NCBI GenBank assembly: GCA_018894435.1
Contig: JAHIPI010000040.1
Location: 1 to 61,804 of the forward strand
Direction: 5' to 3'
Source of the DNA: Candidatus Omnitrophota bacterium
Lineage (GTDB): Bacteria > Omnitrophota > Gorgyraeia > JAHIPI01
DNA: 61,804 nucleotides
The position numbers were made by a program, and so were the translations under genes. This document shows, one piece after another, positions 21,370 through 61,676 of the stretch; position 1 is the stretch's first letter, and every line of letters begins with the position of its first letter. Below the pieces are notes generated by a model. The model was not told where the DNA came from, did no database searches, and saw nothing but the letters and a program-made list of their open reading frames with translations.

Positions 21370-21825
21370 ATGCTGCCCGGAAAAAGAGTGATATCAAAAC
21401 AATTGGGAGACCTTCTCATGGAGAGGGGCTTAATAACTAAGGAAGGCTTGGAGAAGGCCCTTAAGATACAGAAGGAAAAAGGCGGGCTCTTAGGCGATAT
21501 ACTTGTGAGTATGGGGTGCACCACGGAAGAACAGATAGCCCAAGCCATTACGGTTCAGTATGGTTTCCCTTATTTACCTTTAGTCAGTTATGAAATAGAG
21601 ACTAGGATTGTAGACATGATATCGGAAAACGTTGCAAGGCAATATTGCCTCATAGGTGTGGATAAAATAGGTGATACGCTTACTATAGCAATGGCAAACC
21701 CTCTTAATACGCAGGCAATAGAGGACATAGAGATGATATCGGGCTCACGGGTGCAGATATTTGTCAGCACGACGACTGATATCAAAAATGCAATCGATAA
21801 GTACTATAAGAAAAAAGTAAAATAG
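21370..21825 (+). CDS. stand-alone MshEN/T2SSE_N domain protein (PilB N-terminus without an ATPase)
   Basis: QLGDLLMERGLITKEGLEKALKIQ-KEKGG-LLGDILVSMGCTTEEQIAQAITVQ (tandem MshEN-like 24-mers), then a T2SSE_N-like LIGVDKIGDTLTIAMANPLN. 151 aa with no Walker motifs. Confidence 0.8.
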   Translation: MLPGKRVISKQLGDLLMERGLITKEGLEKALKIQKEKGGLLGDILVSMGCTTEEQIAQAITVQYGFPYLPLVSYEIETRIVDMISENVARQYCLIGVDKIGDTLTIAMANPLNTQAIEDIEMISGSRVQIFVSTTTDIKNAIDKYYKKKVK

Positions 21826-21865
21826 CTATCAGCTGAAAGCTGACAGCTGATAGCTGAAAGCTATA
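21824..21865 (+). repeat. heptanucleotide tandem array H1 (6 x AGCTNNN) filling the spacer from stop codon to pilB1 ATG
   Basis: AGCTATC AGCTGAA AGCTGAC AGCTGAT AGCTGAA AGCTATA, then A-ATG. The first unit overlaps stop TAG 21823-21825. Contains an 11-bp inverted repeat AGCTATCAGCT/AGCTGATAGCT. Confidence 0.9.
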
Positions 21866-21866
21866 A

Positions 21867-23600: not shown

Positions 23601-23603
23601 CAA

Positions 23604-25322
23604 ATGGCAAAATCGCTTAAAGACAGACTAGTGGAAGTACTCCTGGACAGCAAGCTCATCACCAAAGAGCAGCTTGACAAGGCGCTTAAGATGCAGAAGA
23701 AGGAGAAGTCCAATATAGGCGAGGTCCTGGTAAAAGAGGGCTTTATTACCCAAAAGGACCTGATGATAATACTGAGCCGCGAGCTCAATATCCCGCCGAT
23801 GAATCTCGCGAGATACAAGATCAGTCCCGATGTCATAAAACTCATACCCGAACGGATCGCAAAGCAGTATCATCTTCTTCCGGTGGCAATATTAGGCAAT
23901 ACCCTTACTTTGGCAATGAGCGACCCGCTCAATATATTCGCTATAGACGACATAAGAATGCTTACCAAGTTTGACATTGATCCGGTACTTGCCACAGAGA
24001 GTGATATAAAGGAAGCGATAAATATTTATTACGGTACCGCAAGCACGGAAATGTCGCAGATATTGGAGGATGCGAAAGAAAAGGAAGGAGAGTTAGAAGT
24101 AGTAGAGCACGAAGATATAGATATATCCCGCCTTACCGAAGAAAGCAAAAAAGCGCCCATAGTCAAAATGGTGGACCTTATGCTGGCGGAGGCGTTGAAA
24201 AAACGCGCGAGCGATATCCATATAGAACCGTGTGAGCGCGAATTGCGGATACGATACAGGATCGACGGCGCGCTTCATGAAGCCCTGACGCTTCCCAAGA
24301 AGAATCAAAATGCCGTATTGGCCAGATTGAAAATAATGTCAAAACTGGATATAACCGAGTCCCGGCTTCCTCAGGACGGAAGATTTAAGATACGCCTTGA
24401 AGGAAGAGAAGTGGATTTCAGGGTCTCTGTCCTACCCGTCTCCTACGGAAGCAAGGTGGTGCTGAGGGCACTTGATAAAAGCAGCTTGGGCGTCGGACTT
24501 GATAAATTGGGTTTTCTTAAAGAAGAACTCGAGAGGTTTGAAGAGGGCCTCAAGAGGCCTTATGGCATGTTGCTTCTCACGGGACCGACGGGATGCGGCA
24601 AATCTACGACTCTTTATTCTATACTTAACAAACTTAATACACCGGAGAAGAATATCATAACAGTCGAAGACCCCGTGGAGTATCAGGTCGAAGGAATTAC
24701 GCAAATTCCCGTCAACGCCGATATCGGGCTTACTTTTTCAGCAGGCTTAAGAGGGCTTCTAAGGCAGAGTCCGGATATTATAATGGTGGGAGAAATAAGG
24801 GATTTCGAAACGGCGGACATAGCCATTAAGGCATCTTTAACGGGCGAACTTGTGCTGAGTACTTTGCATACTAATGACGCGCCCGGCGCTATTACGCGAT
24901 TGATCGATATGGGGGTAGAGCCGTTTCTCGTTGCTTCAAGTATCGTCCTTACAGCCGCGCAGAGGTTATGCAGGCGTATATGTCCGCACTGTAAAGAAGA
25001 AGCGGATATACCTATGGCCGTACTGGAGAGAGTATGGATTAATAAGGCAGAAATGGATAAGCTGAAAGGAAAGAAGTTCTTCAAGGGCCGCGGCTGTCCC
25101 AAATGTAATAATACGGGTTACTACGGCCGGATGGGGACATTGGAAGTCCTTATAATAGACGATGCTATAAGAGACATGATTATAAAATGCGTCCCGGCTG
25201 ATCAATTAAAGGACTATGCCGTTAAACACGGTATGTCCACATTGAGGGATAACGCGCTTAAAAAGTTTATTAACGGCGATACGACGCTGGAGGAAGTGCT
25301 GAGGATTACGACGGTAGAATAG
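23604..25322 (+). CDS. pilB: type IV pilus assembly ATPase PilB (paralog 2, tandem)
   Basis: Begins 3 nt after paralog 1. RLVEVLLDSKLITKEQLDKALKMQ, GPTGCGKSTTLYS, CPHCKEE...CPKC. Confidence 0.92.
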   Translation: MAKSLKDRLVEVLLDSKLITKEQLDKALKMQKKEKSNIGEVLVKEGFITQKDLMIILSRELNIPPMNLARYKISPDVIKLIPERIAKQYHLLPVAILGNTLTLAMSDPLNIFAIDDIRMLTKFDIDPVLATESDIKEAINIYYGTASTEMSQILEDAKEKEGELEVVEHEDIDISRLTEESKKAPIVKMVDLMLAEALKKRASDIHIEPCERELRIRYRIDGALHEALTLPKKNQNAVLARLKIMSKLDITESRLPQDGRFKIRLEGREVDFRVSVLPVSYGSKVVLRALDKSSLGVGLDKLGFLKEELERFEEGLKRPYGMLLLTGPTGCGKSTTLYSILNKLNTPEKNIITVEDPVEYQVEGITQIPVNADIGLTFSAGLRGLLRQSPDIIMVGEIRDFETADIAIKASLTGELVLSTLHTNDAPGAITRLIDMGVEPFLVASSIVLTAAQRLCRRICPHCKEEADIPMAVLERVWINKAEMDKLKGKKFFKGRGCPKCNNTGYYGRMGTLEVLIIDDAIRDMIIKCVPADQLKDYAVKHGMSTLRDNALKKFINGDTTLEEVLRITTVE

Positions 25323-25340
25323 GGCAGTTAGGAGGGTAAC

Positions 25341-26555
25341 ATGGCATTATACAAGTATGTCGCGAAGAATACAAGCGGTCAGACCGTAACAGGGGTCTTA
25401 GATGCTCCGGACAGGGCCCTTTTAATCGGCAAGCTGAGAGAAAAAGATCTTGTCATAGTCTCTATTGCGGAAGCAAAGACGAGCATAACGCAACAGGGCG
25501 GGTTTTTTCAGCGTAGATCTGTAAATATAGATGATATGGTCATATTTTCGAGGCAGCTTGCCACTATGGTAGATGCGGGTATTCCCCTTGTCGGCGCGCT
25601 TGACATATTGGGCGAACAGATGGAGAACAAGACTTTTTCGGAGGTCATTTTGAATGTGAGGGATAATGTGGAGACGGGCTCAAGCCTCTCCGAGGCACTT
25701 TCAAAATATCCGAAGACATTCTCCACCCTATTCGTGAATATGGTGAAGGCCGGCGAATCAAGCGGTATGTTAGACGAGATACTGGACAGGGTGGCGACTT
25801 ATCTGGAAAAGACGAGCATACTGCAGAGAAAGATAAAATCGGCATTGATATACCCCGCGGTTATAACTTTCATGGCCATAGTCATTACAATTATTCTCCT
25901 TGTTAAAGTCATACCGGTCTTTAAAGATATATTCGCCGGTTTCGGCGCGGCATTGCCCCGCCCGACTCAGGTCTTGATTGATTTAAGCGATTTTTTGCGT
26001 AAGTATTTCTTTTTCGGCGTTGGCTTTCTAGTAATTATGATTTTTCTCCTTATTCGGTATATAAATACCGAAAAAGGGCGCCTCAGATTCGATACCATAA
26101 CGCTTACCATGCCCATATTCGGGATACTTCTTCGCAAAGTCGCGGTCAGCAAATTTACGCGCACCCTCTCCACCCTCGTAAAAAGCGGTGTGCCCATTTT
26201 GAGCTCGCTTGAGATAGTCGGCAAAACATCGGGCAATAAGCTTATAGAAAAGGCAGTGGTAAGTATAAGGTCCAGCATAAGGGAGGGGGAAAATATAGCA
26301 GAGCCGCTTGCTAAAAGTAAGGTATTCCCACCCATGGTCGTCAGGATGATTTCGGTAGGGGAGCAAACGGGCGAGCTTGAAAAGATGCTCTCAAAGATAG
26401 CTGACTTCTACGACGCGCAGGTAGATGCCGCTGTCACCGGCCTGACAAGCATGATAGAGCCCCTGATCATTGCCTTTTTGGGCATAGTAATCGGCACAAT
26501 CGTTATCTGTATGTTCCTGCCAATATTCAAGATATCGACGATTATAAATATGTAA
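25341..26555 (+). CDS. pilC: type IV pilus platform protein PilC (T2SSF family)
   Basis: GGAGGG RBS. Duplicated T2SSF repeats FSRQLATMVDAGIPL and FTRTLSTLVKSGVPIL. Three TM segments. Confidence 0.93.
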   Translation: MALYKYVAKNTSGQTVTGVLDAPDRALLIGKLREKDLVIVSIAEAKTSITQQGGFFQRRSVNIDDMVIFSRQLATMVDAGIPLVGALDILGEQMENKTFSEVILNVRDNVETGSSLSEALSKYPKTFSTLFVNMVKAGESSGMLDEILDRVATYLEKTSILQRKIKSALIYPAVITFMAIVITIILLVKVIPVFKDIFAGFGAALPRPTQVLIDLSDFLRKYFFFGVGFLVIMIFLLIRYINTEKGRLRFDTITLTMPIFGILLRKVAVSKFTRTLSTLVKSGVPILSSLEIVGKTSGNKLIEKAVVSIRSSIREGENIAEPLAKSKVFPPMVVRMISVGEQTGELEKMLSKIADFYDAQVDAAVTGLTSMIEPLIIAFLGIVIGTIVICMFLPIFKISTIINM

Positions 26556-48713: not shown

Positions 48714-50134
48714 AATACGATGTTTACATAGGGCTTGAGGTTCATCTTCAGCTGTCAACAAAGACAAAAGCGTTCTGTTCCTGCGGCACCGTCTTCGGCG
48801 AAGCGCCGAACAGTCAAACGTGCCCCGTATGCCTTGGCCTTCCGGGCGCGCTGCCTGTCCTGAATAAAGAGGTGCTTACAAGCGCCATAAAAGTTGCGCT
48901 CGCTCTTGACTGTTCGATAGCCGAAAGGATGAAATTTGACCGCAAAAATTATTATTACCCTGATCTACCGAAGAATTTTCAGATCTCACAATATGACAAG
49001 CCGCTTTCATATGACGGGCACCTGGACATAACTATCGGCGGAAAAGAAAAGAGGATAGGCGTAAAAAGGGTGCACATAGAAGAAGACGCGGGTAAATTAT
49101 TTCATAAAGCGGATTACAGCCTTGTGGACTATAACAGGACAGGTACTCCGCTTCTGGAAATAGTATCCGAGCCGGATATGTCATCACCGGAAGAGGCATA
49201 TGCGTATTTAGCGACTCTAAAGTCCGTATTGAAATATCTGGACGTCTCGGATTGTAACATGGAGGAAGGCAGCCTGCGGTGCGACGCGAATATATCTTTG
49301 AATCGAAAAGGTTCGGGGAAGCTGGGCACAAAGACGGAGCTTAAGAACATGAATTCATTTAAGTGGGTCAGGAGCGCCCTGGAGTACGAAATCAACAGGC
49401 AGTCCGAAATACTCGATGATGGCGGAAAGATTACCCAGGAAACGCGGTTATGGAACGCTGATAAGGCCGTCACTATTTCCATGCGCACGAAAGAGGAGGC
49501 CCACGATTACCGCTATTTTCCCGAGCCGGACCTTGTGCCTTTTAGCGTAAGCAGGGAATTGGTCGACGAGGTAAAGCGCGCGATTCCGGAGCTTCCGAAA
49601 GAGCGGATGGCGCGTTTTGTTTCGCAGTATGCTATACCGGCTTACGACGCCTCGGTGCTTACACAGGAAAAGAAGGCCGCCGATTTTTTTGAAGAGGCCG
49701 TAAGGATACATAGTAATCCCAAGGGTATATCAAATTGGATAATGGGAACTTTAAATGCCATACTTAATGAGAAACGCCTGGATATAGACAGGACAAAGCT
49801 TTTACCCGCTAACCTTGCGCTTATGGTAAAGATGATAGACGACGGCGCGATAAGCGCCAAAATAGGAAAAGAGATGCTTTTGGAAATGGTTGATACGGGA
49901 GAGTCGCCGGATGTATTGGTAGAAAAGAAAGGGCTCAGGCAGATTTCAGATGCCGGGGCGCTTGAAGGTATTATAGATAAAATCATTAAAGAAAACGAAA
50001 GATCGGTAAGCGATTATAAATCGGGCAAGAAAAACGCATTGGCGCATCTTGTGGGGCAGATAATGAAGGATACCAAAGGACGCGCAAACCCCAAAACCGT
50101 CAATGAAATCTTGCTCAAAAAATTGGAGGGGTAA
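48710..50134 (+). CDS. gatB: Asp/Glu-tRNA amidotransferase subunit B
   Basis: [13 protein letters not shown] and a C-terminal GatB/YqeY domain. Confidence 0.95.
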
Positions 50135-50142
50135 TATACATC

Positions 50143-51414
50143 ATGAAGGCAAAAAAGATTCTCTTATGGATAGTTGTGCTGGCGTTGTTGTTTACATTAA
50201 GGACGGCTAATTGCGCCCAGAAGGCCGAAAAGCGCCAAGACATGTCGGCGATGTACGAACAGATACAGCTATTCTCAGATGCCATTACCATCATACAGAA
50301 GAATTATGTGGATACCATAGAGCCCAAAAAATTGATATACGGCGCGCTCGGAGGCATGCTGAGGGCGCTTGACCCATACAGCCAGTTTATGGATCCCGAT
50401 ATGTACAACGAGATAAAAGTGGAGACCACCGGCAAATTCGGCGGGCTGGGCATAGAGATATCAATACGCGATAACCTCTTGACCGTAATAGCGCCCATAG
50501 ATGGTACGCCAGCGTATAAGGCAGGCATAAAGGCGCTCGACAGGATAGTGAAGATCAACAATGAGTCCACAAGAGATATAACCCTGCTCGAGGCCGTAAA
50601 GAAATTAAGGGGAGAACCGGGCACGACAGTCGATGTTACGGTTTTGCGCGAAGGCGAGAAGAAGCTTTTGGATTTTACTATAAAAAGGGACATAATAAAA
50701 GTAGACAGCTTAAAGAAAGCGGAAGTACTGGAAGGCGACATAGGATATATCAGGCTTATCGAATTTCAGCAGGACACCTCCAAGGAACTTGATAAAGCGC
50801 TTGCCTCTCTTGAAGTCAAAAATATCAAGGGACTTATACTGGACCTGAGGGATAACCCAGGCGGGTTGTTGGACAGCGCCGTTGATGTGTCGGATAAGTT
50901 CCTGCATAACAATGAAATTATAGTGACGACAAAAGGCAGGCAGGAAGATCAGGTTTTGGAGTTCAGGGCGCGTAAGAAAGGCGCCCTGCATGATTATCCG
51001 ATAGCCATCCTTGTAAACGGCGGATCAGCAAGCGCTTCTGAGATAGTTGCCGGCGCGATACAGGATAATAAGAGAGGGCTTGTGATCGGCATAAAGACTT
51101 TCGGCAAAGGATCTGTCCAGACTGTTGTACCATTACCGGACGGCTCGGCACTCCGGATCACGACGGCGAAGTATCTTACGCCGAGCGGCCGCTCAATAAT
51201 GAACGACGGCATAGAGCCGGATGTAGTAGTTGAACAAAAAGAATATAAAGAGTCGGCAAAAGAAAATGCCGAAGATATATTTGAGAGCCTCGAAGAGAAA
51301 GACCTGGAGAAAGCGCTCGAGGAGAATAAAAAAGCGTATGACCACCAGCTTTCGACGGGCATCAATATATTACGCGGGATAATAGCTTATAACGGTAAAG
51401 GCATTCGTGATTGA
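50143..51414 (+). CDS. ctpA: carboxy-terminal processing (S41) protease with PDZ domain
   Basis: GGSASASEI (catalytic Ser), TFGKGSVQ (Lys), PDZ GTPAYKAGIKALDRIVKIN. Confidence 0.9.
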   Translation: MKAKKILLWIVVLALLFTLRTANCAQKAEKRQDMSAMYEQIQLFSDAITIIQKNYVDTIEPKKLIYGALGGMLRALDPYSQFMDPDMYNEIKVETTGKFGGLGIEISIRDNLLTVIAPIDGTPAYKAGIKALDRIVKINNESTRDITLLEAVKKLRGEPGTTVDVTVLREGEKKLLDFTIKRDIIKVDSLKKAEVLEGDIGYIRLIEFQQDTSKELDKALASLEVKNIKGLILDLRDNPGGLLDSAVDVSDKFLHNNEIIVTTKGRQEDQVLEFRARKKGALHDYPIAILVNGGSASASEIVAGAIQDNKRGLVIGIKTFGKGSVQTVVPLPDGSALRITTAKYLTPSGRSIMNDGIEPDVVVEQKEYKESAKENAEDIFESLEEKDLEKALEENKKAYDHQLSTGINILRGIIAYNGKGIRD

Positions 51415-52510
51415 TTTTTTATCCGGTCGCGCAAAGCTTATCATAGCTCTTCTTGCGGCCCTTGTGGTGGTTTTCGTGCTTTTTGCGCGAAGAGACTATA
51501 CAGGGAATACCGAGCGCCTTGACTCTATGATCTTGGAAACGGTACGGGATTCTGGTGTTCCCGACAGCGATTTTGTTTTCGGCAAACAAGAGAAAGGTAA
51601 AAGCGGCGGCCGCACCTTCTTAAAGATCACGCGCCGCTACGAAGTAAGCCGGAGCTTTGACCTTAACAGATTTCAGTCCGAGATAGACAAAAAGCTGCGT
51701 AAGACAGGTTTTAAAACCGTAAAATCCGTTTTCGAAAAGCGCGGGGAGCGCGAGGAACATACAGTCTATTTTTCCTTTAAAAACAGGATAATATATGAGA
51801 TATCGTTTTTGAAGAAAGCATATGGGCGTATTTCGCGCCGAGGCGCAAAGAATGCTAAGATCGCTATAGTCCTGGATGACTTTGGTTATAACATGAATAA
51901 TCTCGAAACTCTTTACGGCATAAACGCGCCTATTACGATATCGATTCTGCCGAATATCACTTATTCAAAAAGGATTGCGGAAGAGGCGAGCGCAAAGAAT
52001 ATAGAGATCCTTTTACATCTGCCGCTTGAACCGCGCGGAGAAGAAGATAATCTGGAGCCCGGGACCATAAAGGTCGGTATGCCGCCCAGAGAAGTCAAGG
52101 CGTTGTTGAAAAAGGCGATAGAAAGCGTGCCGCGAATAAAAGGCGTCTCTAATCATATGGGCTCAAAGGCCACAGAAGACAAAGAGCTGATGAAGGTAAT
52201 ATTTGACGAGCTCAAAAAGCGGCGCTTATATTTTATGGACAGCCTTGTTACCGACAGCTCTATGTGCGAAGTCGCGGCCCTTAAGTCCGGATTGCGCATT
52301 GCGACAAGAGATGTATTTCTGGATAACGAATCGGACGAAAGATATATAGAAAATCAACTAAGGCGCACTGCCGAAATAGCCGCAAAAAGCGGCTCAGCCG
52401 TAGGGCTGGGCCACGACCGGCCGAACACAATACGCGTATTGGCAAAGATCATCCCAGAACTTAAAAGCGAAGGATTTCAATTTGTCTATCTTTCGGAACT
52501 CGTGAAGTGA
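51407..52510 (+). CDS. divergent polysaccharide deacetylase family protein (YibQ-like)
   Basis: N-terminal TM, IAIVLDDFGYN, NHMGSKATED. Confidence 0.8.
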   Translation: MIDFLSGRAKLIIALLAALVVVFVLFARRDYTGNTERLDSMILETVRDSGVPDSDFVFGKQEKGKSGGRTFLKITRRYEVSRSFDLNRFQSEIDKKLRKTGFKTVKSVFEKRGEREEHTVYFSFKNRIIYEISFLKKAYGRISRRGAKNAKIAIVLDDFGYNMNNLETLYGINAPITISILPNITYSKRIAEEASAKNIEILLHLPLEPRGEEDNLEPGTIKVGMPPREVKALLKKAIESVPRIKGVSNHMGSKATEDKELMKVIFDELKKRRLYFMDSLVTDSSMCEVAALKSGLRIATRDVFLDNESDERYIENQLRRTAEIAAKSGSAVGLGHDRPNTIRVLAKIIPELKSEGFQFVYLSELVK

Positions 52511-52511
52511 T

Positions 52512-53519
52512 ATGATAGTCTTAGGCATAGAGACCTCATGCGATGAAACTGCCGTGGCAGTTCTTAAAGATAATACGATACTTTCTAATTCGGTTTCATC
52601 TAGCATTGACCTGCATAAGGACTTCGGAGGCGTGATACCCGAGATAGCATGCAGGTATCATGTGGAGTATATAAACTATGTCCTTCGCGATGCCCTTAAA
52701 GCGGCAGGCAAGACTTTAAAAGATGTAGACCTTATTGCTGTTACGGTCAAGCCGGGGCTTGTGGGCGCGCTTTTAGTAGGCGTGTCACTTGCCAAGGCGC
52801 TGGCCTTATCGCTGGATGTGCCGATAATAGGGGTGGATCACCTGATAGCGCACTTGTATGCGCCATGCGTAAGCGGTGAGAATGTTAAATTCCCGTTTGT
52901 CGGGATGGTGGTATCGGGCGGGCACACAAATCTATTTTTAGTACGCAGCGTAACAAAATATAAACTATTGGGACAGACGCTGGATGATGCCGCAGGCGAG
53001 GCATTCGATAAAGTTGCAAAACTCCTGGGGTTGGGGTATCCGGGCGGCCCGGTCATACAGAAAATGGCAGCGAAAGGCAGGGTGGATAAGAAACTTTTTT
53101 CTCTCGAAAGCTTTGACGGCAGCCTCAATTTCAGTTTTAGCGGCATTAAGACGGCGGTTCTTTACCACTTGCGGGATAGGCTAAAGAAAGGGAAACTAGC
53201 CGCCAAAGAGATCAATGATATTGCCGCAAGTTTTCAGGATGCGGTAACCGATATTTTGACAAAAAAAGCTATCCTTGCGTGCGAAAGAGAGAGGGTGTAT
53301 ACTTTGGTATTGGGCGGCGGAGTAACGGCTAATGAGGAGCTGAGGCGGAAGATAGCCGGCGCTACGCAATATAGCGGTATAAAGCTGTATCTTCCCCTCA
53401 AAAAATTGTGTCTGGATAACGCTGCGATGGTTGCGGGATTGGGAGGGGCGCTGTACAAAAGGAGAGTAATATCCGATCTTGGTATCAGCGCTGAATCAAG
53501 CAGTATTTATGCCGCATAA
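52512..53519 (+). CDS. tsaD: tRNA N6-adenosine threonylcarbamoyltransferase
   Basis: LGIETSCDETAVAV and GVDHLIAHL. Confidence 0.95.
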   Translation: MIVLGIETSCDETAVAVLKDNTILSNSVSSSIDLHKDFGGVIPEIACRYHVEYINYVLRDALKAAGKTLKDVDLIAVTVKPGLVGALLVGVSLAKALALSLDVPIIGVDHLIAHLYAPCVSGENVKFPFVGMVVSGGHTNLFLVRSVTKYKLLGQTLDDAAGEAFDKVAKLLGLGYPGGPVIQKMAAKGRVDKKLFSLESFDGSLNFSFSGIKTAVLYHLRDRLKKGKLAAKEINDIAASFQDAVTDILTKKAILACERERVYTLVLGGGVTANEELRRKIAGATQYSGIKLYLPLKKLCLDNAAMVAGLGGALYKRRVISDLGISAESSSIYAA

Positions 53520-53541
53520 AAAATTTTAAAAAGGAGAGTCC

Positions 53542-53982
53542 ATGATACAAGTTAGCGATTGGCAAATGATAATGCGCCTTGTAATGAGCGTGCTCCTTTG
53601 CGGAGCAATCGGCCTGGAACGGGAGGTGCGCGGGAGATCCGCGGGCCTGAGGACGCATATATTGGTGGGCTTAAGCTCGTGCCTTTTGATGATAATATCT
53701 ATTTTTGTGGCGCAGAGTTTCGGTGAAGCGCATATGTTTGACCCGGGGCGTATAGCAGCGGGAGTAGTGACGGGCATGGGGTTTCTCGGCGCCGGCACAA
53801 TAATACGCTACGGCGAGTCTATAAAAGGATTGACTACGGCAGCGAGTTTATGGGCGGTAACGGCAGTAGGATTGGCCGTAGGAGCCGGATTTTATCTGGC
53901 GGCATATGTTTCAACAGCTTTAATTCTAATAACGCTTTTTGCATTATCACGAGTTGAAAAAAGTATCAGTAAAGGGAAATAA
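53542..53982 (+). CDS. mgtC: MgtC/SapB-family membrane protein (short form)
   Basis: GLEREVRGRSAGLRTHILV, four TM segments. Confidence 0.85.
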   Translation: MIQVSDWQMIMRLVMSVLLCGAIGLEREVRGRSAGLRTHILVGLSSCLLMIISIFVAQSFGEAHMFDPGRIAAGVVTGMGFLGAGTIIRYGESIKGLTTAASLWAVTAVGLAVGAGFYLAAYVSTALILITLFALSRVEKSISKGK

Positions 53983-53996
53983 ATAGGAGGTGCGGC

Positions 53997-54527
53997 ATGA
54001 TGAAGAGGAGAGAAGCCGTAGAAAAAGTGCTTGATGTTGATGCCACTATGCAGGGTTCGTTGACGTTTAAGGATCCGGTGAATCTGCGCATAAACGGCAG
54101 TTTTGACGGGACACTTGATACGAAAGGCACTCTGACAATCAGCGAAAGCGCTATTGTCAGAGCAGAAATAAGGGGCGAGAGCATAATCGTTGCCGGCCGC
54201 GTATACGGCAATATAATCGCCGAACGCGAGCTTAAAATAATTCCGCCGGCACATGTTACGGGCAATGTTACCACGCCGCGCCTCAATATACTTGACGGGG
54301 CCGTGTTGGACGGCGAATGTCACATGACTACGCCCGGGAGCCATTCAAGCAGCGCGACAAAGAATGTTATGACAGCAGAGGAGCTCGCCAAGTATCTTGA
54401 AGTGGAGACCCCCATGATTTTTGAATGGGCCTCCTCCGGCAAGCTTCCGGCTTTCAAAGACAAAGACAACTGGAAATTTGAGAGAAATAGAATAGACGAG
54501 TGGATAGCAAACGGCAAAGTGATCTAG
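53997..54527 (+). CDS. bactofilin domain fused to a C-terminal excisionase-type HTH
   Basis: Bactofilin beta-helix repeats (LRINGSFDGTLDTKGTLTISESAIVRAEIRGESIIVAGRVYGNIIA...LDGAVLDGECHM). An S-rich linker, then MTAEELAKYLEVETPMIFEWASSGKLPAFKDKDNWKFERNRIDEWI. Confidence 0.8.
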   Translation: MMKRREAVEKVLDVDATMQGSLTFKDPVNLRINGSFDGTLDTKGTLTISESAIVRAEIRGESIIVAGRVYGNIIAERELKIIPPAHVTGNVTTPRLNILDGAVLDGECHMTTPGSHSSSATKNVMTAEELAKYLEVETPMIFEWASSGKLPAFKDKDNWKFERNRIDEWIANGKVI

Positions 54528-54652
54528 GTAATAAATGCAAGAAAATAGCCCGCTAATGGCGTTAAGCTATTTCCTTGGTGGAACTCGGGAGATTTATAAT
54601 GCTAATGAGTAAGACAAATTGCGCGAATAAGCGCTGGGAAGAAAAATAGCGT

Positions 54653-55027
54653 ATGCACCAAGAAAAACTTTTAAACATAAAAGAGGTGGCGGAATATTTA
54701 GGCCTTTCCGAAGAAAAGGTAAAGCGCCTTGTCTCCGCAGGGGATATCCCTGCATATAAGATTGCCGGGCTTCTGCTCAGATTTAAAAAAGACCAGATAG
54801 ATCAATACAAAAGAAAGATAATTTCGGGTGATACAACGCAGGCAATTCCGGCTTCTTTCCGGATAGAACGAAAAGCAGGCGCAGCCAGACGTGCTTTTGC
54901 AAAAGAGGAAGCGGCGGTACCTTATTCGGTTATGGAAAAGCTCGAAGACTTCCTTTACTATAACGATTTTTACATTCTGTCGCTCATTCTGCTTCTGCTT
55001 GTGCTATTCGCAATTTTTGATATGTAG
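54653..55027 (+). CDS. excisionase-type HTH protein with a C-terminal transmembrane anchor
   Basis: LLNIKEVAEYLGLSEEKVKRLVSAGDIPAYKIAGLLLRFKKDQIDQY, then the C-terminal YILSLILLLLVLFAIF. Confidence 0.7.
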   Translation: MHQEKLLNIKEVAEYLGLSEEKVKRLVSAGDIPAYKIAGLLLRFKKDQIDQYKRKIISGDTTQAIPASFRIERKAGAARRAFAKEEAAVPYSVMEKLEDFLYYNDFYILSLILLLLVLFAIFDM

Positions 55028-55032
55028 GGCTT

Positions 55033-55803
55033 ATGCGGAGTGAAAAGATTTTACTGGATGTCCTCGCGAAAGTGAGGGCCGGGAAGATTTCTAAAAATAA
55101 GGCGGCCAGAGCGCTAAGCGGATTTCCTTCTCGCGAACTTGAATTCGCCAATATAGATTGCGCGAGGCACGCACGATGCGGCTTTCCTGAAGCAGTTTAT
55201 TGCGAAGGCAAGACAGTAGAACAGATCAGGCGGATATCACGCGAGATATTGAAGTGCGACGGGTTTCTTCTTTTGACGCGATTGGCCGAAAGTTCCTATA
55301 AAAAGATAAAGCGGTCTTTCCCGCATTTAAAATACAATAAGCTTGGCAGGGTAGCCTATTGCCGGAAGGCTTTGGCGCCGGCATGGAAGAACAAGAATAG
55401 AAAAGTTATTCTTATAATAACTGCGGGGACTTCCGATATCCCGGTTGCCGAGGAAGCGAAGGCGACACTTTTAGCTGTAGGCGCAAACGTCAGGACTCTC
55501 TACGATGTCGGTGTAGCGGGCATCCACCGCGTTTTAAATAAAGTGGATGAGCTTAGAGAGGCCAATGTCATCATAGTGGCGGCCGGCATGGATGGCGCCC
55601 TCGCGAGCGTTGTGGGTGGAATTGTCTCAAAGCCCGTGATCGCCGTTCCTACAAGCTGCGGTTACGGGGCGAGCTTTAAAGGGCTGGCGGCGCTTCTTAC
55701 CATGCTTAACAGCTGCGCGCCGGGTGTATCCGTTGTAAATATTGATAATGGTTTCGGCGCCGCATACATAGCGAACATGATTAATAATATGAATCTTAAG
55801 TAG
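55033..55803 (+). CDS. larB: LarB-like (PurE-fold) nickel-pincer cofactor biosynthesis carboxylase/hydrolase
   Basis: VILIITAGTSDIPVAEEA, AGMDGALASVVGG, PTSCGYG. Confidence 0.8.
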   Translation: MRSEKILLDVLAKVRAGKISKNKAARALSGFPSRELEFANIDCARHARCGFPEAVYCEGKTVEQIRRISREILKCDGFLLLTRLAESSYKKIKRSFPHLKYNKLGRVAYCRKALAPAWKNKNRKVILIITAGTSDIPVAEEAKATLLAVGANVRTLYDVGVAGIHRVLNKVDELREANVIIVAAGMDGALASVVGGIVSKPVIAVPTSCGYGASFKGLAALLTMLNSCAPGVSVVNIDNGFGAAYIANMINNMNLK

Positions 55804-55831
55804 CAATTAGCAACATCAGCTGAAAGCTAAA
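55802..55831 (+). repeat. degenerate heptad array H3 filling the larB-gspE spacer
   Basis: AGCAATT AGCAACA TC AGCTGAA AGCTAAA. Shares ATCAGCTGAAAGCT (55815-55828) with H1 and H2. The first unit overlaps stop TAG 55801-55803. Confidence 0.7.
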
Positions 55832-55835
55832 AAAC

Positions 55836-57545
55836 ATGCCGATAAAACCCGAAATAATCGAAGAGATGCTTAAAGGGACCGGGCTCCTTCGCGCCGACGA
55901 GATAAAGGATGCCCTTCGCCTCCAGCGCGATACAAGAGAACGGCTCGGACTTATTTTTTTAAGGAAGGGTAGTATATCGGACGAAAATATAAGAAGCGTC
56001 GTTACCGCTCAGATAGGCATCGAAACCGAAAAGACAGAAAACCTGAAGATAGAGTCTGATACTTTAAGAAAAGTTCCGGTGACCTTTGCCCACCACCACC
56101 GCGTAATCCCCGTAAAATTCGAGAACGATACCCTTACCGTCGCAACGGATAACCCGTTTAATTTTCTTGCGTTCGGCAACTTTAAAATTTTCCTCGGTTA
56201 TAAAATAGAAGGTATTCTTACCACCGGGCAGGATCTGGATGATTTGCTGGAAAAGTATTACGGATTAAAAGAAGGCGCGCCCATTGACGCGCTGGTAGCG
56301 GGTATGGATACCCGTAAGAAGATAACGCTGAGAGAGATTGAAGAAGAAAAGGCTCGGCCGATATCAAAAGAAGAGGAGACGCCCGTAGTCAAGCTGGTAG
56401 GCCTTCTTATAGCCGAAGCCTTTAAGAAAAGAGCAAGCGATGTCCATATAGAACCCCTCGAAAACAAATTTCGTATAAGGTATAGGATCGACGGCGTGCT
56501 TCATGAAGTGCCCGGCCCTCCTAAAAGATTACAGGCCTCGGTCATAAGCAGAGTTAAGATAATGGCCGGAATGGACATAGCGGAAAAGAGGCTCCCGCAG
56601 GACGGAAGGATCAGGATAGAGATAGGCGGTAAAGAATTGGACCTCAGGGTCTCAACCCTTCCCGCCATATACGGCGAAAGCGTAGTCTTGCGAATATTGG
56701 ATAAATCCAGCTTCCTGCTTGGGTTGAAAGAGCTGGGATTTATGCCTGAGGATGAGAAGAGATTCGAACGCCTTATAAAAGCGCCTAACGGCATACTTCT
56801 TGTTACGGGGCCTACAGGCAGTGGTAAGACGACGACTCTTTACGCCTCGCTTAGCCACATAAATAAACCTGACAGAAAACTGATCACGGTTGAAGATCCG
56901 GTTGAATATCAGATAAGCGGCATAAACCAGGTGCAGGTCAAGCCGCAGATAAACCTTACATTTGCCATGGGACTGAGGAGCATATTGCGCCAGGCCCCCG
57001 ACGTAATAATGGTGGGCGAAATAAGAGATTTTGAGACAGCGCAGATAGCGATACAGGCAGCGCTCACCGGCCATCTTGTTTTTTCGACCTTGCACACAAA
57101 TGATGCGCCCGGGGCGGTGACCAGGTTGATAGATATGGGCATTAAGCCCTATCTTGTCGCCTCGGCCCTTCAGGCAGTACTAGCCCAGCGGCTTGTCAGG
57201 GTGATATGCCCCAACTGCAAAGAAGAATACGATCCCAGTAAGGAAGAGATAGCGGCGCTGAATCTCAAGCCGGAACAATTGAAAAAAGCTAAATTTTTTA
57301 GAGGAAAAGGGTGCGACGAATGCGGTAATAGCGGTTATCGGGGCAGGATAGGTATTTTTGAATTACTAATAATGACTGATGAGGTGCGGGAGATGATATT
57401 TGAAAAGGCCTCGAGCAGCACGCTAAAGGAAAAGGCAAAGAATTTCGGGATGGCGACTCTTAGAGAAGACGGAGTGAGGAAGGTGCTAAAAGGCATGACC
57501 ACTGTATCGGAAGTAATGAGAGTAACGCAGCAGGATGTGGTTTGA
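55836..57545 (+). CDS. GspE/PilB-class secretion ATPase (paralog 3)
   Basis: GPTGSGKTTTLYA, CPNCKEEY...CDEC. The N-terminal second half-motif RLGLIFLRKGSISDENIRSVVTAQ is MshEN-like. Confidence 0.9.
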   Translation: MPIKPEIIEEMLKGTGLLRADEIKDALRLQRDTRERLGLIFLRKGSISDENIRSVVTAQIGIETEKTENLKIESDTLRKVPVTFAHHHRVIPVKFENDTLTVATDNPFNFLAFGNFKIFLGYKIEGILTTGQDLDDLLEKYYGLKEGAPIDALVAGMDTRKKITLREIEEEKARPISKEEETPVVKLVGLLIAEAFKKRASDVHIEPLENKFRIRYRIDGVLHEVPGPPKRLQASVISRVKIMAGMDIAEKRLPQDGRIRIEIGGKELDLRVSTLPAIYGESVVLRILDKSSFLLGLKELGFMPEDEKRFERLIKAPNGILLVTGPTGSGKTTTLYASLSHINKPDRKLITVEDPVEYQISGINQVQVKPQINLTFAMGLRSILRQAPDVIMVGEIRDFETAQIAIQAALTGHLVFSTLHTNDAPGAVTRLIDMGIKPYLVASALQAVLAQRLVRVICPNCKEEYDPSKEEIAALNLKPEQLKKAKFFRGKGCDECGNSGYRGRIGIFELLIMTDEVREMIFEKASSSTLKEKAKNFGMATLREDGVRKVLKGMTTVSEVMRVTQQDVV

Positions 57546-57555
57546 AAATAATGTA

Positions 57556-57577
57556 GTCCCTCGGCTTCGCTCGGGAC
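57556..57577 (+). repeat. copy B of the dispersed hairpin motif, upstream of pilT2
   Basis: GTCCC TCGGCTTCGCTC GGGAC. Confidence 0.7.
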
Positions 57578-57616
57578 GATTTGCAGCCGAGCAATAGAGG
57601 GCAAATCGGAGGGCAT

Positions 57617-58681
57617 ATGGAAATAGATCAACTTTTACAAATATGTATCGAACGTAACGCGTCAGATATCCATCTTACCGTAGGAAAGCCACCTACCCTG
57701 AGGGTGGACGGTATGTTGGATCCGCTGGATTATAATCCTCTTTCGGCAAACGATACGGAAGCGCTCATCAAATCGATAACAAGCGAAAGTCATCTTCAGA
57801 AAGTCCAGAAGTTCGGAGGAGCAGATTTTGGCTTGAGTTTCGGCGATGTCGCGAGATTCCGCGTCTCTGTCTATAAGCAGAAAGGATACTGGGGGACATC
57901 GCTCCGGCTTATTCCCTCCAAGCTGCTTACATTTGAGGAGATAGGCCTGCCGCTTAGCGTAAAAGAACTTTTGCATAGGCCGAGGGGTCTTATACTTGTA
58001 ACGGGCCCCACAGGCGGCGGAAAGACGTCGACCTTGGCATCTATGACCGACTATGTAAATACTAACCGCGATGCTCATATCATAACCATAGAAGACCCGA
58101 TAGAATATTACCACGAGCATAAAAGAGGCATCATCACACAGCGCGAACTGGGGGTTGACGTATATTCTTTCAGCGAGGCGATAGTAAGGGGCCTAAGGAT
58201 GAACCCCGACGTTATACTTGTGGGAGAGATGCGCGATTTGGCTACCATAGAAGCCGCTATTCTGGCGGCGGAAACCGGCCATCTCGTTCTTGCGACGCTC
58301 CATACTACAAGCGCAGCCCAGACAGTGGATAGAATCATAAATGTGTTTCCTCCGCAGCAGCAGGAGCAGGTAAGAATGCAGCTATCTACTTCTATCCTTG
58401 CCATATTCTGCCAGCAGCTTCTTATAAAAGCGACTAAAAAAGGAAGGGTCGCGGCGTTTGAAATAATGATCACGACCTCGTCTATACAGAACCTTATACG
58501 CGAGAAGAAGACATTCCGCATAACATCCGATATTCAGACGGGGGCAAAATACGGGATGAAGACATTTGACTCATCCCTCGTAGAGCTATACCAGCGCAAC
58601 CTTATAGATTATGAGACGATGCTCCTAAAAGCATTTGAACCCGATCAGATTGAATTGCGGTTTCAAAAGGGGAGGAAATGA
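57617..58681 (+). CDS. pilT: type IV pilus retraction ATPase PilT (paralog 2)
   Basis: Start moved to ATG 57617 (GGAGG upstream). GPTGGGKTSTLAS, VILVGEMRD, SIQNLIREKK. Confidence 0.92.
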   Translation: MEIDQLLQICIERNASDIHLTVGKPPTLRVDGMLDPLDYNPLSANDTEALIKSITSESHLQKVQKFGGADFGLSFGDVARFRVSVYKQKGYWGTSLRLIPSKLLTFEEIGLPLSVKELLHRPRGLILVTGPTGGGKTSTLASMTDYVNTNRDAHIITIEDPIEYYHEHKRGIITQRELGVDVYSFSEAIVRGLRMNPDVILVGEMRDLATIEAAILAAETGHLVLATLHTTSAAQTVDRIINVFPPQQQEQVRMQLSTSILAIFCQQLLIKATKKGRVAAFEIMITTSSIQNLIREKKTFRITSDIQTGAKYGMKTFDSSLVELYQRNLIDYETMLLKAFEPDQIELRFQKGRK

Positions 58682-60396
58682 GCGAGAAGAAATATAAATC
58701 CCTGGGAAAGTTATTGCTTGATAGGGGCCTTATTACCGAAAGCCAGCTGCAGCAGTCCCTTGACGAGCAAAGGTATACCGGTAAATTGCTGGGAAGGACC
58801 CTGGTCGAGCTCGGCTTTGTCAAAGAAGACGAAATACTCAAAACGCTGGGCGTCCAGGCCGGTATAGAGTTTATCGATTTATCCAAAATAGACATACCCA
58901 AGGAAGTGCTGCAGAAGGTCTCGCCTACTATTACAAAGATATACAAGATTATGCCGGTCAAATTTGAGGGAAGTCTTCTTACCATAGCTATGAGCGACCC
59001 GCTCAATGTGAATATATCCGACGATCTCAGGTTTATGCTCGGCTGCAATATAAAGGGCGTGATAGCCAGAGAAAATGATATACTCTCGGCAATACAAAAG
59101 TATTACGGCGAAAGAGGCGAATCCATAAATGAGCTGCTCGGCGAGATAGATAAGAATATCCCGGCCGGCCAGCGCGAAGAGATAGAAGAAGAGGTGACGG
59201 ACGTTGTAGTCCTGCAGGAACTCGCCTCGCAGCCTCCCGTCGTAAAACTGCTTAACCTTATACTTTTGCAGGCGGTGAAAGACAGGGCCTCGGATATACA
59301 TTTTGAACCTTTCGAAGATAAGTATGCGATACGCTACAGGGTGGACGGTATATTATACGACATAACCACCCCGCCCAGAAATCTGGCGCTCGCGATAAGT
59401 TCAAGGATAAAGGTAATGTCAAGCCTCGATATAGCGGAACGCCGCCTGCCGCAGGACGGCCGCATAATGATATCGGTGGAAGGCAAAAACATCGATTTGA
59501 GGGTCTCTACGCTTCCGACTGTCTTTGGAGAGAGTGTCGTTATGAGGGTTTTAGACAGGGATGTTGTGAGCCTGTCGCTTGACCAAGTAGGGATGTCGGA
59601 AGACGTAAAGAAGGAGACGCGGCGCATTATTAACAAGCCAAACGGCATAGTGCTGTCCACAGGCCCGACGGGCTGCGGCAAGACGACCACGCTTTATTCG
59701 TGCCTGCGCGAAATAAATAGAATAGATTATAAAATAATAACCACCGAGGATCCGGTGGAATACGATATATCCGGGATCATACAGGTCTCCATAAAGCCGA
59801 AGATAAACCTCAATTTTGCGACCTGCCTCAGGCACATCCTGCGCCAGGACCCCGACATAATAATGGTGGGTGAAATCAGGGATGCCGAAACCGCGCAGAT
59901 AGCCATTCAGGCTTCACTTACCGGCCATCTTGTCCTGAGTACGTTACATACAAATGATGCACCGGGCACCATAACACGGCTTATAAATATGGGAGTGGAA
60001 CCGTTTCTTATAACTTCCACCCTTGAGGCGATAATAGCCCAAAGGCTCATAAGAGTAATATGTAAAAATTGCCGCGAAAGATATCATCCGGACCAGAATA
60101 CGCTTGAGGAGACAGGCCTTAGAAAGGAAGAGCTTAAGGATATGGTTTTTTATAAAGGCAAAGGTTGCGGCCAATGCAATAAAAACGGCTATAAGGGCAG
60201 GATCGGGATATTTGAGCTTCTGATTATTACAGAAGGCCTGAAACCGCTTATAATGGATAAGGTCCGGACAAGCGTGCTCAGACAGGCGGCGCGCAAAGAA
60301 GGCATGGTGACATTGAGGGAAGATGGCCTCAAAAAAGTGCGCGAGGGTATAACGACCATAGAGGAAATAATGCGCGAGACGCAGCAGTACTTATAG
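58678..60396 (+). CDS. pilB: type IV pilus assembly ATPase PilB (paralog 4)
   Basis: SLGKLLLDRGLITESQLQQSLDEQ (MshEN-like), GPTGCGKTTTLYS, CKNCRERY...CGQC. ATGA overlap with pilT2. Confidence 0.92.
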   Translation: MSEKKYKSLGKLLLDRGLITESQLQQSLDEQRYTGKLLGRTLVELGFVKEDEILKTLGVQAGIEFIDLSKIDIPKEVLQKVSPTITKIYKIMPVKFEGSLLTIAMSDPLNVNISDDLRFMLGCNIKGVIARENDILSAIQKYYGERGESINELLGEIDKNIPAGQREEIEEEVTDVVVLQELASQPPVVKLLNLILLQAVKDRASDIHFEPFEDKYAIRYRVDGILYDITTPPRNLALAISSRIKVMSSLDIAERRLPQDGRIMISVEGKNIDLRVSTLPTVFGESVVMRVLDRDVVSLSLDQVGMSEDVKKETRRIINKPNGIVLSTGPTGCGKTTTLYSCLREINRIDYKIITTEDPVEYDISGIIQVSIKPKINLNFATCLRHILRQDPDIIMVGEIRDAETAQIAIQASLTGHLVLSTLHTNDAPGTITRLINMGVEPFLITSTLEAIIAQRLIRVICKNCRERYHPDQNTLEETGLRKEELKDMVFYKGKGCGQCNKNGYKGRIGIFELLIITEGLKPLIMDKVRTSVLRQAARKEGMVTLREDGLKKVREGITTIEEIMRETQQYL

Positions 60397-60404
60397 GATA
60401 ACGC

Positions 60405-61676
60405 ATGCCGATATATTCTTATAAAGCAATAGATAAATTCGGAAAAGAGATAGCGGACGAAGTAGATGTCGCAAGTTATGACGAAGCGATAAAAAAGCTG
60501 CGCGGCCTGGGTTACTTTCCTACGCAGATTACCGCAAAGCGCAGCAAGGCATCTACTCGCGCCGCACATGCCGCGGGAGGAGCCGTTGGAGGGGTAGGCC
60601 TTTCCATGGAAATAAGCATACCGTTTCTTGGGATCGGTTCCGTCAATCAGAAACAGGTGACGCTTTTTACCCGGCAGTTAGCCACGCTTATAGGTGCGGG
60701 CCTGCCGCTTGTAAGGAGCCTTAATATTTTGCGGGACCAGATGAAGGCGGGGTCCTTTCGTAACATGGTACAGAGCGTCGCGAATCAGGTGGAAACAGGA
60801 AGTACTTTCTCAGACGCGCTGCTCAAGCATCCAAAGGCATTTTCGAGATTATTTGTTAATACCGTAAAAGCTGGCGAAACAGGGGGCGTTTTGGAAGTTG
60901 TGCTTACGCGTCTGGCGGAATTCAGCGAAAAGAGCGAGCGATTGAAGAACCGCATAAGATCGGCTCTTGCGTATCCCATCCTTGTCATCATGATAGCCCT
61001 CGGCGTCCTATCATTTCTCATAATCTTCGTCATCCCCAAGTTTATGGAACTTTTTAAGGAGCTAGGCACGGAACTTCCGCTTCCGACATTGATACTCTTA
61101 CAAATAAGCGATTTTATGCAGCATAAGTGGCTATTAGGCATCATTTTTATCGTCGGTTTTATAATTCTTTATAACTTCGCGCTGCGCTTGGAACCGTTTA
61201 GGCTTTTAATAGATAATATAAAATTGCACCTGCCGGTATTCGGCGTTTTGGCCCAGAAGGTGGCAATCGCGAGATTCTCGCGCACGCTGGGGACGCTTAT
61301 ATCGAGCGGTGTGCCCATTCTACAAGCTCTTATGATCACAAAAGATACCGCGGGCAATGAAGTCATAGCCCGTTCACTTGGCAGGGTCCATGATAGTATC
61401 CGCGAAGGTGAGTCCATAGCAGGGCCGCTGGCAAAGACGAAGATATTTCCCCTCATGGTAGTCAATATGATAAGCGTGGGGGAAGAGACCGGCTCGCTCG
61501 ACCAGATGCTTAACAAAGTAGCCGACACGTATGATGATGAGGTGGATGTTACCGTTACCGCGCTTACCTCGCTACTTGAGCCCCTGTTAATAGTGGGAAT
61601 GGGCTTAATAGTCGGCGCTATCGTAATATCGATGTTTTTACCCCTGGTCAAGCTATTGACTACGTTGAGCGCGTAA
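60405..61676 (+). CDS. pilC: type IV pilus platform protein PilC (paralog 2)
   Basis: FTRQLATLIGAGLPL and FSRTLGTLISSGVPIL repeats, with an Ala/Gly-rich insert near the N-terminus. Confidence 0.92.
   Translation: MPIYSYKAIDKFGKEIADEVDVASYDEAIKKLRGLGYFPTQITAKRSKASTRAAHAAGGAVGGVGLSMEISIPFLGIGSVNQKQVTLFTRQLATLIGAGLPLVRSLNILRDQMKAGSFRNMVQSVANQVETGSTFSDALLKHPKAFSRLFVNTVKAGETGGVLEVVLTRLAEFSEKSERLKNRIRSALAYPILVIMIALGVLSFLIIFVIPKFMELFKELGTELPLPTLILLQISDFMQHKWLLGIIFIVGFIILYNFALRLEPFRLLIDNIKLHLPVFGVLAQKVAIARFSRTLGTLISSGVPILQALMITKDTAGNEVIARSLGRVHDSIREGESIAGPLAKTKIFPLMVVNMISVGEETGSLDQMLNKVADTYDDEVDVTVTALTSLLEPLLIVGMGLIVGAIVISMFLPLVKLLTTLSA

Follow-up and report, generated by a model that had tools for sequence, protein, structure and literature searches.

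We describe a two-gene module in a 61,804-nucleotide (nt) stretch of DNA from Candidatus Omnitrophota bacterium (GenBank assembly GCA_018894435.1, contig JAHIPI010000040.1, positions 1 to 61,804 of the forward strand), referred to below as the window. The first gene (gene 1) fuses a bactofilin to a domain of the winged helix-turn-helix (wHTH) type, and the second (gene 2) encodes a wHTH membrane protein with a transmembrane (TM) helix at its C-terminal end. Our best explanation, to which we give a probability of about 50%, is that the pair forms a membrane-attached bactofilin scaffold whose winged helices serve mainly as coupling modules. On this reading the module is independent of the pilus genes that lie beside it in this genome.

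Bactofilins are widespread polymer-forming scaffolds, with clients and membrane attachment known for few model species, and Omnitrophota is a phylum of very small uncultured bacteria. The building blocks of the module are known, but their arrangement is undescribed and is conserved across this phylum: a client-type domain is fused to the polymer and comes with a dedicated tail-anchored partner of the same fold, a new bactofilin architecture. An earlier reading of the window by a model that saw only the sequence (the original prediction) called it an architecture that it had not seen described, and the literature agrees as far as we searched it: no paper joining Omnitrophota and bactofilin was found, and the listed titles and abstracts on bactofilins and helix-turn-helix (HTH) domains hold no such fusion. 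A large bactofilin survey covers N-terminal motifs and TM-anchored variants only (PMC12448750).

The features of the pair are listed here with their sources, which include the open reading frame (ORF) list and AlphaFold2 (AF2) models with their predicted local distance difference test (pLDDT) scores.
53997..54527, + strand: gene 1, bactofilin-wHTH fusion, 176 amino acids (aa) (ORF list, Pfam, AF2)
54027..54320, + strand: bactofilin beta-helix domain of gene 1, residues 11-108 (Pfam, AF2, Foldseek)
54327..54365, + strand: flexible Ser/Lys/Ala/Gly-rich linker of gene 1, residues 111-123 (pLDDT <50 at 114-121)
54366..54515, + strand: C-terminal acidic winged HTH of gene 1, residues 124-173 (HTH_17, Foldseek)
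54653..55027, + strand: gene 2, tail-anchored wHTH membrane protein, 124 aa (ORF list, HTH_17, AF2)
54668..54823, + strand: N-terminal winged HTH of gene 2, residues 6-57 (AF2, Foldseek)
54824..54928, + strand: disordered linker of gene 2, residues 58-92 (pLDDT about 51-53)
54929..55021, + strand: juxtamembrane helix (residues 93-104), then TM helix (residues 105-123) of gene 2 (AF2)

Gene 1: a bactofilin carrying a winged helix

The original prediction had placed a bactofilin-HTH fusion and an HTH membrane protein here, and both ORFs and their domains hold up. Gene 1 matches Pfam Bactofilin PF04519 over residues 11-108 (82.2 bits, cut-off 27.9, E-value 3.4e-23) and HTH_17 PF12728 over residues 124-173 (36.8 bits, cut-off 27), and gene 2 matches HTH_17 over residues 6-55 (50.3 bits, cut-off 27); at E <= 0.01, neither matches Pfam families beyond these two. 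The NCBIfam model TIGR01764 'excise' scores 30.7 for gene 1 and 50.8 for gene 2 (cut-off 28.8), and by such profile matches the two HTH domains are assigned to the same family, the NCBIfam 'excisionase family' domain. They had been called 'very similar', which overstates a likeness of 26% identity and 62% positives.

Residue counts given throughout rest on 107 gene 1 relatives, and neighbourhood and charge counts on the best 80 of at least 526 species loci. The bactofilin part of gene 1 has profile matches in the Protein Data Bank (PDB) to Caulobacter crescentus BacA (2n3d, 1.2e-9) and Thermus thermophilus TtBac (6ria, 4.9e-7). Its AF2 model, built on the 107-sequence alignment (mean pLDDT 84), predicts a right-handed beta-helix over residues 11-110, with pLDDT >90 over 20-110, which Foldseek superimposes on BacA 2n3d (TM-score, TMt, 0.83; root-mean-square deviation (rmsd) 2.1 Å) and on 6rib (TMt 0.77). 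L104 aligns with the polymerisation residues F130 of BacA and F105 of TtBac, whose published variants F130R and F105R are polymerisation-deficient; across the relatives this position holds L in 68, F in 36, M in two and I in one (L/F in 104/107). From the fold and this conserved interface residue, we infer that gene 1 polymerises.

The beta-helix ends in G-x-C-x-M, with G106 and M110 present in all 107 relatives and C108 in 100. This ending had been taken as typical of bactofilins; BacA has G-R-S-L and TtBac G-Q-S-V at the aligned place, and the motif reads as a signature of the bactofilin-wHTH family, not a general bactofilin motif. The linker that follows is 7-17 residues long in the family (median 13; S 15%, K 13%, A 11%, G 10%). 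Beyond it, AF2 and DSSP place an a1-a2-b1-b2-a3 winged helix at residues 124-171, which Foldseek matches to BldC (6amk/6ama) at an rmsd of 1.2-1.4 Å, and also to Pukovnik Xis, RdfS, RacA, MerR-family regulators and CbpM.

The N-terminus of gene 1 bears on how the filament might reach the membrane. The bactofilin membrane-targeting consensus is MFSKKKK, with F2, K4 and K7 critical in BacA (PMC12448750). Gene 1 begins MMKRR here, and the commonest start in the family is MMGKK, mostly followed by D-K-K. Among the relatives, position 2 is M/I/L in 61 and R in 35 and is never F, while position 4 is K/R in 102; positions 4, 5, 7 and 8 are mostly K/R, with E frequent at 7-8. The N-terminus thus resembles MFSKKKK but lacks Phe2, its own membrane affinity being uncertain on these residues, and because Phe2 is absent from all 107 relatives a separate membrane anchor is plausible.

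Gene 2: a tail-anchored partner

The AF2 model of gene 2 (mean pLDDT 79) opens with a predicted winged helix (a1 9-16, a2 20-28, b 35-37 and 41-45, a3 46-57). Foldseek matches it to BldC at an rmsd of 2.0-2.3 Å, and also to Pukovnik Xis and RacA; its 'tail' positions Y35 and I37 are nearly invariant in relatives. The disordered linker spans 20-61 residues across the family. It had been described as basic, which holds in the window (net charge +2) but not for the family, where net charge ranges from -7 to +7.

Two helices follow in the model, at 93-103 and 105-123 (pLDDT 87-98), with a kink at N104. The second is the C-terminal TM helix that the original prediction had recognised; it has a Kyte-Doolittle mean of 2.79 (17-mer) and ends the protein. 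Among the 67 of 70 relatives that bear the motif described next, a median of two and a maximum of four residues follow the TM helix; gene 2 is therefore a tail anchor, with its HTH in the cytoplasm. A ToxR-like sensor reading was rejected on the same ground, as at most four residues lie outside the membrane. The assignment of these HTH domains to the MADS1 anti-phage HTH (NF047737) was likewise rejected: scores of 52.8 and 45 bits stand against an equivalog cut-off of 80 and mark domain-level similarity only.

The juxtamembrane motif DF(L/F)Y(Y/F)NDFY (window 54947-54973, gene 2 residues 99-107) occurs in 67/70 relatives and is the most conserved part of gene 2, above its HTH. Its putative role is that of a lipid-interface belt or of a binding site. 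In the deepest lineage, L081, LWQWVKNSS replaces it.

Pairing is near-obligate, pilus adjacency is not

The 80 loci were searched by tblastn with the window's own proteins, and the denominators that follow are the loci long enough to tell. An HTH-TM gene lies downstream of gene 1 in 74/74, after a spacer with a median length of 15 nt (range -32 to 196). Upstream of gene 1, ctpA is found in 53/53, tsaD in 59/60, mgtC in 67/69 and a yibQ-like gene in 28/53; downstream, larB is present in 60/67. The MgtC-family gene is missing in L038 and L078, and among the genes called upstream in deep lineages, and is a conserved neighbour, not an obligate one. A type IV pilus (T4P) ATPase is nearby in only a minority of loci: 23/60 at a distance of up to 3 kb, 16/44 at up to 8 kb.

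On the gene 1 tree, pilus adjacency is confined to three clades, among them the window's own clade of five, and is absent from a 24-species clade; it requires 6 state changes, compared with 19.8 for shuffled labels. Moreover, larB always stands between the pair and the T4P ATPases, and where pilus genes are lacking larB is followed by larC (L006, L014), CdhD/RACo or tetratricopeptide repeat (TPR) proteins.

In the deep lineages (35-45% identity), the flanks differ and the pairing is kept in 5/6. In the most divergent, L081 (35% identity), the pair (L081:3289-4946) comes after SPOR and TPR/PDZ genes; in L086 it is followed by SIS/cytidylyltransferase genes and in L085 by larB, and in L087 and L088 the partner gene begins just before the contig end. 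Where deep-lineage contigs extend past the pair, no pilus genes adjoin it. SPOR domains bind septal peptidoglycan, and the SPOR neighbour in L081 is a weak hint at a division context. A TPR/PDZ protein similar to that of L081 also lies after larC in L006 (10813-11841).

The link between gene 1 and gene 2 is thus close to obligate and is the only such link, and the link to pilus genes is lineage-specific. The original prediction had, as one possibility, tied the pair to the pilus motors, a tie that these counts do not bear out, and the gene-neighbourhood comparison that it proposed in advance found what it had named as evidence against itself, a pair widespread without pilus genes. The pilus genes adjoining the pair here should not be read as functional partners, a caution for gene-neighbourhood inference.

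Distribution of the fusion

A word-indexed search returned 797 gene 1 homologs, of which the top 120 all combine PF04519 with PF12728 at 171-183 aa. Furthermore, a scan of one genome per species gave more than 600 pattern matches, 526 of them confirmed as encoding a relative of the fusion. In an exhaustive HMMER search over 1.84 billion cluster representatives, E <= 1e-30 was reached by 21 clusters. Alignment extends over the full length (168-199 aa) for about 25 clusters at 50% identity, and Pfam detects both domains in the three most divergent of these that were scanned (P0220, P0225, P0232).

Among the best 80 loci, 62 are named Omnitrophota or Omnitrophica and 18 are labelled 'uncultured Planctomycetia' (L001, L002, L009, L017, L019, L021 and 12 others). 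These 18 interleave with Omnitrophota on the gene 1 tree, where L001 is the sister of the window; their titles look like placeholder taxonomy, and by name or tree position all 80 loci are assigned to Omnitrophota.

The DNA of the region itself recurs outside this assembly. A groundwater-metagenome unitig (run X1) matches 53691-55803 without a single difference, and two further studies hold pieces identical to the window region.

Two variants come from the representative library. P0262 (231 aa) has three tandem HTH_17 domains, and in P0241 (311 aa) part of a glycosyltransferase is linked with the end of a bactofilin domain and HTH_17, probably a gene-call or assembly chimera. The metagenome-assembled genome JAPLMG01 has a gene 1 copy on each of two contigs, L026 and L050, which could reflect strain heterogeneity, duplication or bin contamination.

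DNA-reading residues of the two winged helices

Structures of BldC bound to DNA provide a reference for both domains (PMC5859096). Arg30 and Lys26 read bases, Thr27, Thr29, Lys33 and Trp31 hold phosphates, and the minor groove is occupied by His46, Arg47 and Arg48; binding is lost in the R30A and H46E variants, and RacA reads DNA with an Arg equivalent to R30 (PMC5859096). Hidden Markov model (HMM) alignments fixed the residue register of both genes against BldC, and residues were counted over 107 gene 1 and 70 gene 2 relatives.

In gene 1, the position of R30 is E/D in 104/107 (E143 here), K26 is replaced by S/G/A, T27 by M/V/L, T29 by F/S/L, K33 by N/S in 81/107 and R22 by E in 104/107. W31 is W in 107/107, and the wing residue R48 is K/R in 100/107 (K160 here). 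The alpha-2 recognition helix contains no K/R in 87/107 relatives, compared with 2-3 in BldC, Xis, RdfS and one standalone Omnitrophota HTH_17 protein. The domain as a whole has a net charge of -1 to -6 in 80/80 species, with a mean isoelectric point (pI) of 4.8. On its alpha-2 face, M140, F142, E143 and W144 make a conserved surface, hydrophobic and acidic, that looks like a protein interface.

Gene 2 is less one-sided. R43, the equivalent of the wing residue R48 of BldC, is R in 70/70, and the R30 position is R/K in 36/70 (R25 in the window) and E/D in 24/70; alpha-2 averages 3.6 D/E against 1.7 K/R. Judging from these residues, gene 1 of the window is unlikely to read the major groove in the classical way, and DNA binding by gene 1 at large is doubtful. 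Of the two domains, that of gene 2, in which both key arginines are kept here, is the likelier to touch DNA, and contact through the wings is also possible. The DNA tethering or uptake role once proposed for the pair is accordingly weakened for gene 1, which has lost the basic DNA-reading residues, and is still possible for gene 2.

The acidic gene 1 domain can be contrasted with a standalone HTH_17 protein of about 65 aa from the same genomes, encoded 3-8 kb downstream of the pair in 12 loci of the clade without pilus adjacency (for example L006:12714-12944, L007:12774-12968 and L014:11079-11276, plus 9 more loci). It is strongly basic, with a net charge of +4 to +8 and a pI of about 10, and its recognition helix (KPVTIYKHAKAGK) is typical of DNA binding. 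In the deep-branching L084 fusion P0210, the recognition helix (ISMVRKWARE) is basic and resembles that of BldC.

A putative membrane-attached scaffold

Architecture, predicted folds, polymerisation residue, pairing, tail anchor, loss of DNA-reading residues in gene 1 and weak pilus linkage were all computed, and from them a mechanism can be proposed. Gene 1 would polymerise via its beta-helix into a filament, from each subunit of which a flexible linker of about 13 residues would hold out a winged HTH. Gene 2 would sit tail-anchored in the inner membrane, holding its cytoplasmic winged HTH on a disordered tether of 20-60 residues. The acidic, K/R-free recognition helix of gene 1 would most likely contact protein instead of DNA bases, and the best candidate partner is gene 2, by way of either its winged helix, in a BldC-like head-to-tail arrangement, or its aromatic juxtamembrane helix. 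The head-to-tail contact between BldC protomers includes F21, V23 and W31 (PMC5859096), which align with the conserved L134, V136 and W144 of gene 1. We infer the contact between gene 1 and gene 2, and the cellular role of the pair, as putative parts of this scheme. CbpM and BacR, described below, are the two precedents for such coupling. As a simple two-protein system that can be expressed heterologously, the pair could reveal a new mode of bactofilin anchoring, and also how a DNA-binding fold comes to serve as a module for coupling proteins.

Several points weigh against this scaffold. The head-to-tail contacts of BldC arise only on DNA (PMC5859096). The wing K/R of gene 1 is retained in 100/107 relatives, and 6/9 deep gene 1 representatives have 2-3 K/R in alpha-2, so DNA binding by gene 1 may be ancestral to judge from these residues; loss of the basic helix is therefore a trait of the main clade, the window included, and not of the whole family. 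In L084 (473-1289), the gene next to the fusion encodes an N-terminal TM segment and no HTH partner lies directly downstream, an anecdotal case on a single short contig. Finally, the hydrophobic, basic N-terminus of gene 1 may bind the membrane alone, which would make gene 2 unneeded as an anchor.

Relation to known systems

In Myxococcus, BacNOP and PadC tether ParB-DNA complexes, and BacP together with SofG positions PilB and PilT. These are bactofilin scaffolds that position DNA-partition complexes or pilus motors, but they are plain bactofilins with separate adaptors (PadC, SofG), and pilus adjacency is not conserved here. The families sought or found beside the pair in the scanned loci were the neighbours given above. 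Canonical bactofilins such as BacA and TtBac share with gene 1 the beta-helix, the hydrophobic polymerisation residue and a short basic N-terminal tail. In gene 1, however, the C-terminus is a folded winged HTH where theirs is an unstructured tail, the Phe at position 2 of their MFSKKKK consensus is missing (0/107), and an obligate tail-anchored partner gene is present.

The closest experimental precedent, by analogy, is Bacillus subtilis BacR (YhbD, DUF4004) with BacE/BacF, in which an HTH gene is linked to bactofilin genes and coupling takes place at the membrane (PMC13649987). BacR stands on its own as a soluble dimer, a DNA-binding regulator from another family, whereas here one HTH is fused to the bactofilin, without DNA-reading residues, and the second is membrane-anchored. 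RacA/DivIVA of B. subtilis (PDB 5i44) resembles the pair in combining a MerR-like wHTH, an oligomerising module and a membrane-associated anchor. Yet RacA has the base-reading Arg where gene 1 has Glu and gene 2 has R25 in the window but varies in the family; it oligomerises by a coiled coil instead of a bactofilin, and its DivIVA anchor is peripheral and lacks an HTH.

Both HTHs find their best matches, in fold as in sequence (rmsd 1.2-2.3 Å), among small excisionase/MerR-like wHTH proteins that oligomerise head-to-tail, namely BldC, Pukovnik Xis and RdfS. These differ in that they bind DNA with 2-3 Lys/Arg in alpha-2, the helix that in most gene 1 relatives has none (87/107). CbpM (PDB 3ucs), also among the fold matches, has a MerR-like fold whose binding partner is a protein, the CbpA J-domain, and not DNA; it belongs to an unrelated system and is a precedent only for a protein-binding MerR-type fold.

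Alternative explanations

The pair might instead tether the chromosome to the membrane, as RacA/DivIVA or BacNOP/PadC do, with one or both wHTHs binding DNA multivalently along the filament and gene 2 pinning the complex for nucleoid anchoring or segregation. This is possible, if on the whole unlikely. Both domains share the fold of DNA-bound BldC, Xis, RdfS and RacA; gene 2 keeps its wing Arg throughout and a base-reading Arg/Lys in 36/70, the window included; gene 1 keeps its wing K/R, and its deep lineages have basic alpha-2 helices. Cooperative head-to-tail arrays, the form in which BldC and RdfS bind DNA, would suit domains arrayed on a filament, and the module occurs across the phylum, within a housekeeping block. 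What speaks against it is the acidic or hydrophobic recognition helix of gene 1, with E/D in 104/107 at the R30 position, when R30A and H46E abolish binding in BldC; the acidic excess in alpha-2 of gene 2, together with E/D at its R30 position in 24/70; and a failure to identify candidate binding sites. A broader version, in which the pair is a core cell organiser of Omnitrophota, strikes us as rather speculative: a nucleotide-independent two-protein device, in which a wHTH-bearing bactofilin filament is riveted by gene 2, and chromosomal DNA is kept at the membrane by the gene 2 wHTH, or by the two domains in a BldC-like head-to-tail assembly, in the service of nucleoid anchoring, segregation or division-site marking. 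If true, a chromosome-holding device of this kind would add both a new bactofilin-membrane attachment and a coupling of cytoskeleton, membrane and chromosome.

B. subtilis suggests a different role for membrane recruitment, since BacR, encoded next to bacE and bacF, binds DNA, and the bactofilins that bind it bring it to the membrane and reduce this DNA binding (PMC13649987). A comparable switch here, in which envelope stress would release or modulate HTH transcription regulators kept inactive on the filament or membrane, would fit the envelope-related ctpA and yibQ upstream, but it is improbable: gene 2 has a permanent tail anchor for its HTH, at most four extracytoplasmic residues and nothing that would act as a sensor domain, the HTH of gene 1 is joined covalently to the polymer and lacks DNA-reading residues, the short spacers round the pair (14 nt, median 15 nt) leave scant operator room, and a promoter scan stayed at background. 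Slightly less credible still is a pilus role, in which the pair would position PilB/PilT of the adjacent T4P cluster or couple DNA uptake, as BacP-SofG positions motors in Myxococcus. T4P ATPases do follow larB here and in 23/60 loci over three clades, above the level of a random gene pair, and the genome is rich in T4P genes; against this, the adjacency is missing in about 62% of species, the whole 24-species clade included, larB always intervenes and has other genes after it elsewhere, and deep-lineage contigs beyond the pair show no pilus genes beside it. Two T4P clusters lie within the window alone, and chance proximity is therefore likely. Finally, that an assembly or frameshift error fused two separate genes can practically be dismissed, although the original prediction had listed such an error among the things that would refute it. 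One and the same ORF recurs in more than 100 independent assemblies, with 107 relatives and 80 species loci having it as a single ORF and a relative at 526 or more species-level loci; among the roughly 25 full-length clusters at 50% identity, both domains are present in the three most divergent that were scanned, the identical unitig spans both genes, and an RNA contig of a relative crosses the beta-helix/linker junction with 9/10 listed differences at third codon positions.

Genomic context and traces of transcription

The neighbours of the pair in the window are given for context.
53542..53982, + strand: MgtC-family membrane protein (Pfam MgtC, 134 bits)
55033..55803, + strand: larB, a frequent downstream neighbour (NCBIfam LarB, 289 bits)
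55836..61676, + strand: gspE-pilT-pilB-pilC cluster, context only (Pfam T2SSE, T2SSF)

Upstream lie gatA, gatB, ctpA, a divergent polysaccharide deacetylase (yibQ-like) gene, tsaD and the gene for the MgtC-family membrane protein; the downstream order is larB, a GspE/PilB-type ATPase, pilT, pilB and pilC (Pfam, NCBIfam). The gspE-pilT-pilB-pilC cluster is a lineage-specific neighbour outside the module, and the other T4P cluster, the first in the window, occupies 20284-26555. HTH_17 copies beyond those of gene 1 and gene 2 were not found in the window.

Gene 1 starts 14 nt after the end of mgtC, with AGGAGG 7 nt ahead of its ATG, and the ATG of gene 2 has an in-frame TAG two codons upstream. 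A promoter and terminator scan of 50000-56000 gave counts at shuffle level (9 vs 8.5 and 9 vs 6.3), an Rfam search over 53400-56000 returned a sub-threshold chance match only, and the RNA fold of the 125-nt spacer between gene 1 and gene 2 is unremarkable (z = -1.16).

Two metatranscriptome contigs are thin evidence for transcription in the environment, and neither shows co-transcription of gene 1 and gene 2. One of 270 nt (run X18), which stems from a relative with 94% identity, maps to 54100-54369, across the passage from beta-helix to linker, and third codon positions take 9/10 of its listed differences from the window's gene 1; the other, 155 nt long and identical (run X13), lies at 53614-53768 on mgtC.

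In the clade without pilus adjacency, larC (PF01969, E-value 1e-133) comes directly after larB at L006:9681-10856 and L014:9772-10938. The larB of the window looks orphaned by comparison, with the pilus cluster filling the place that larC holds elsewhere.

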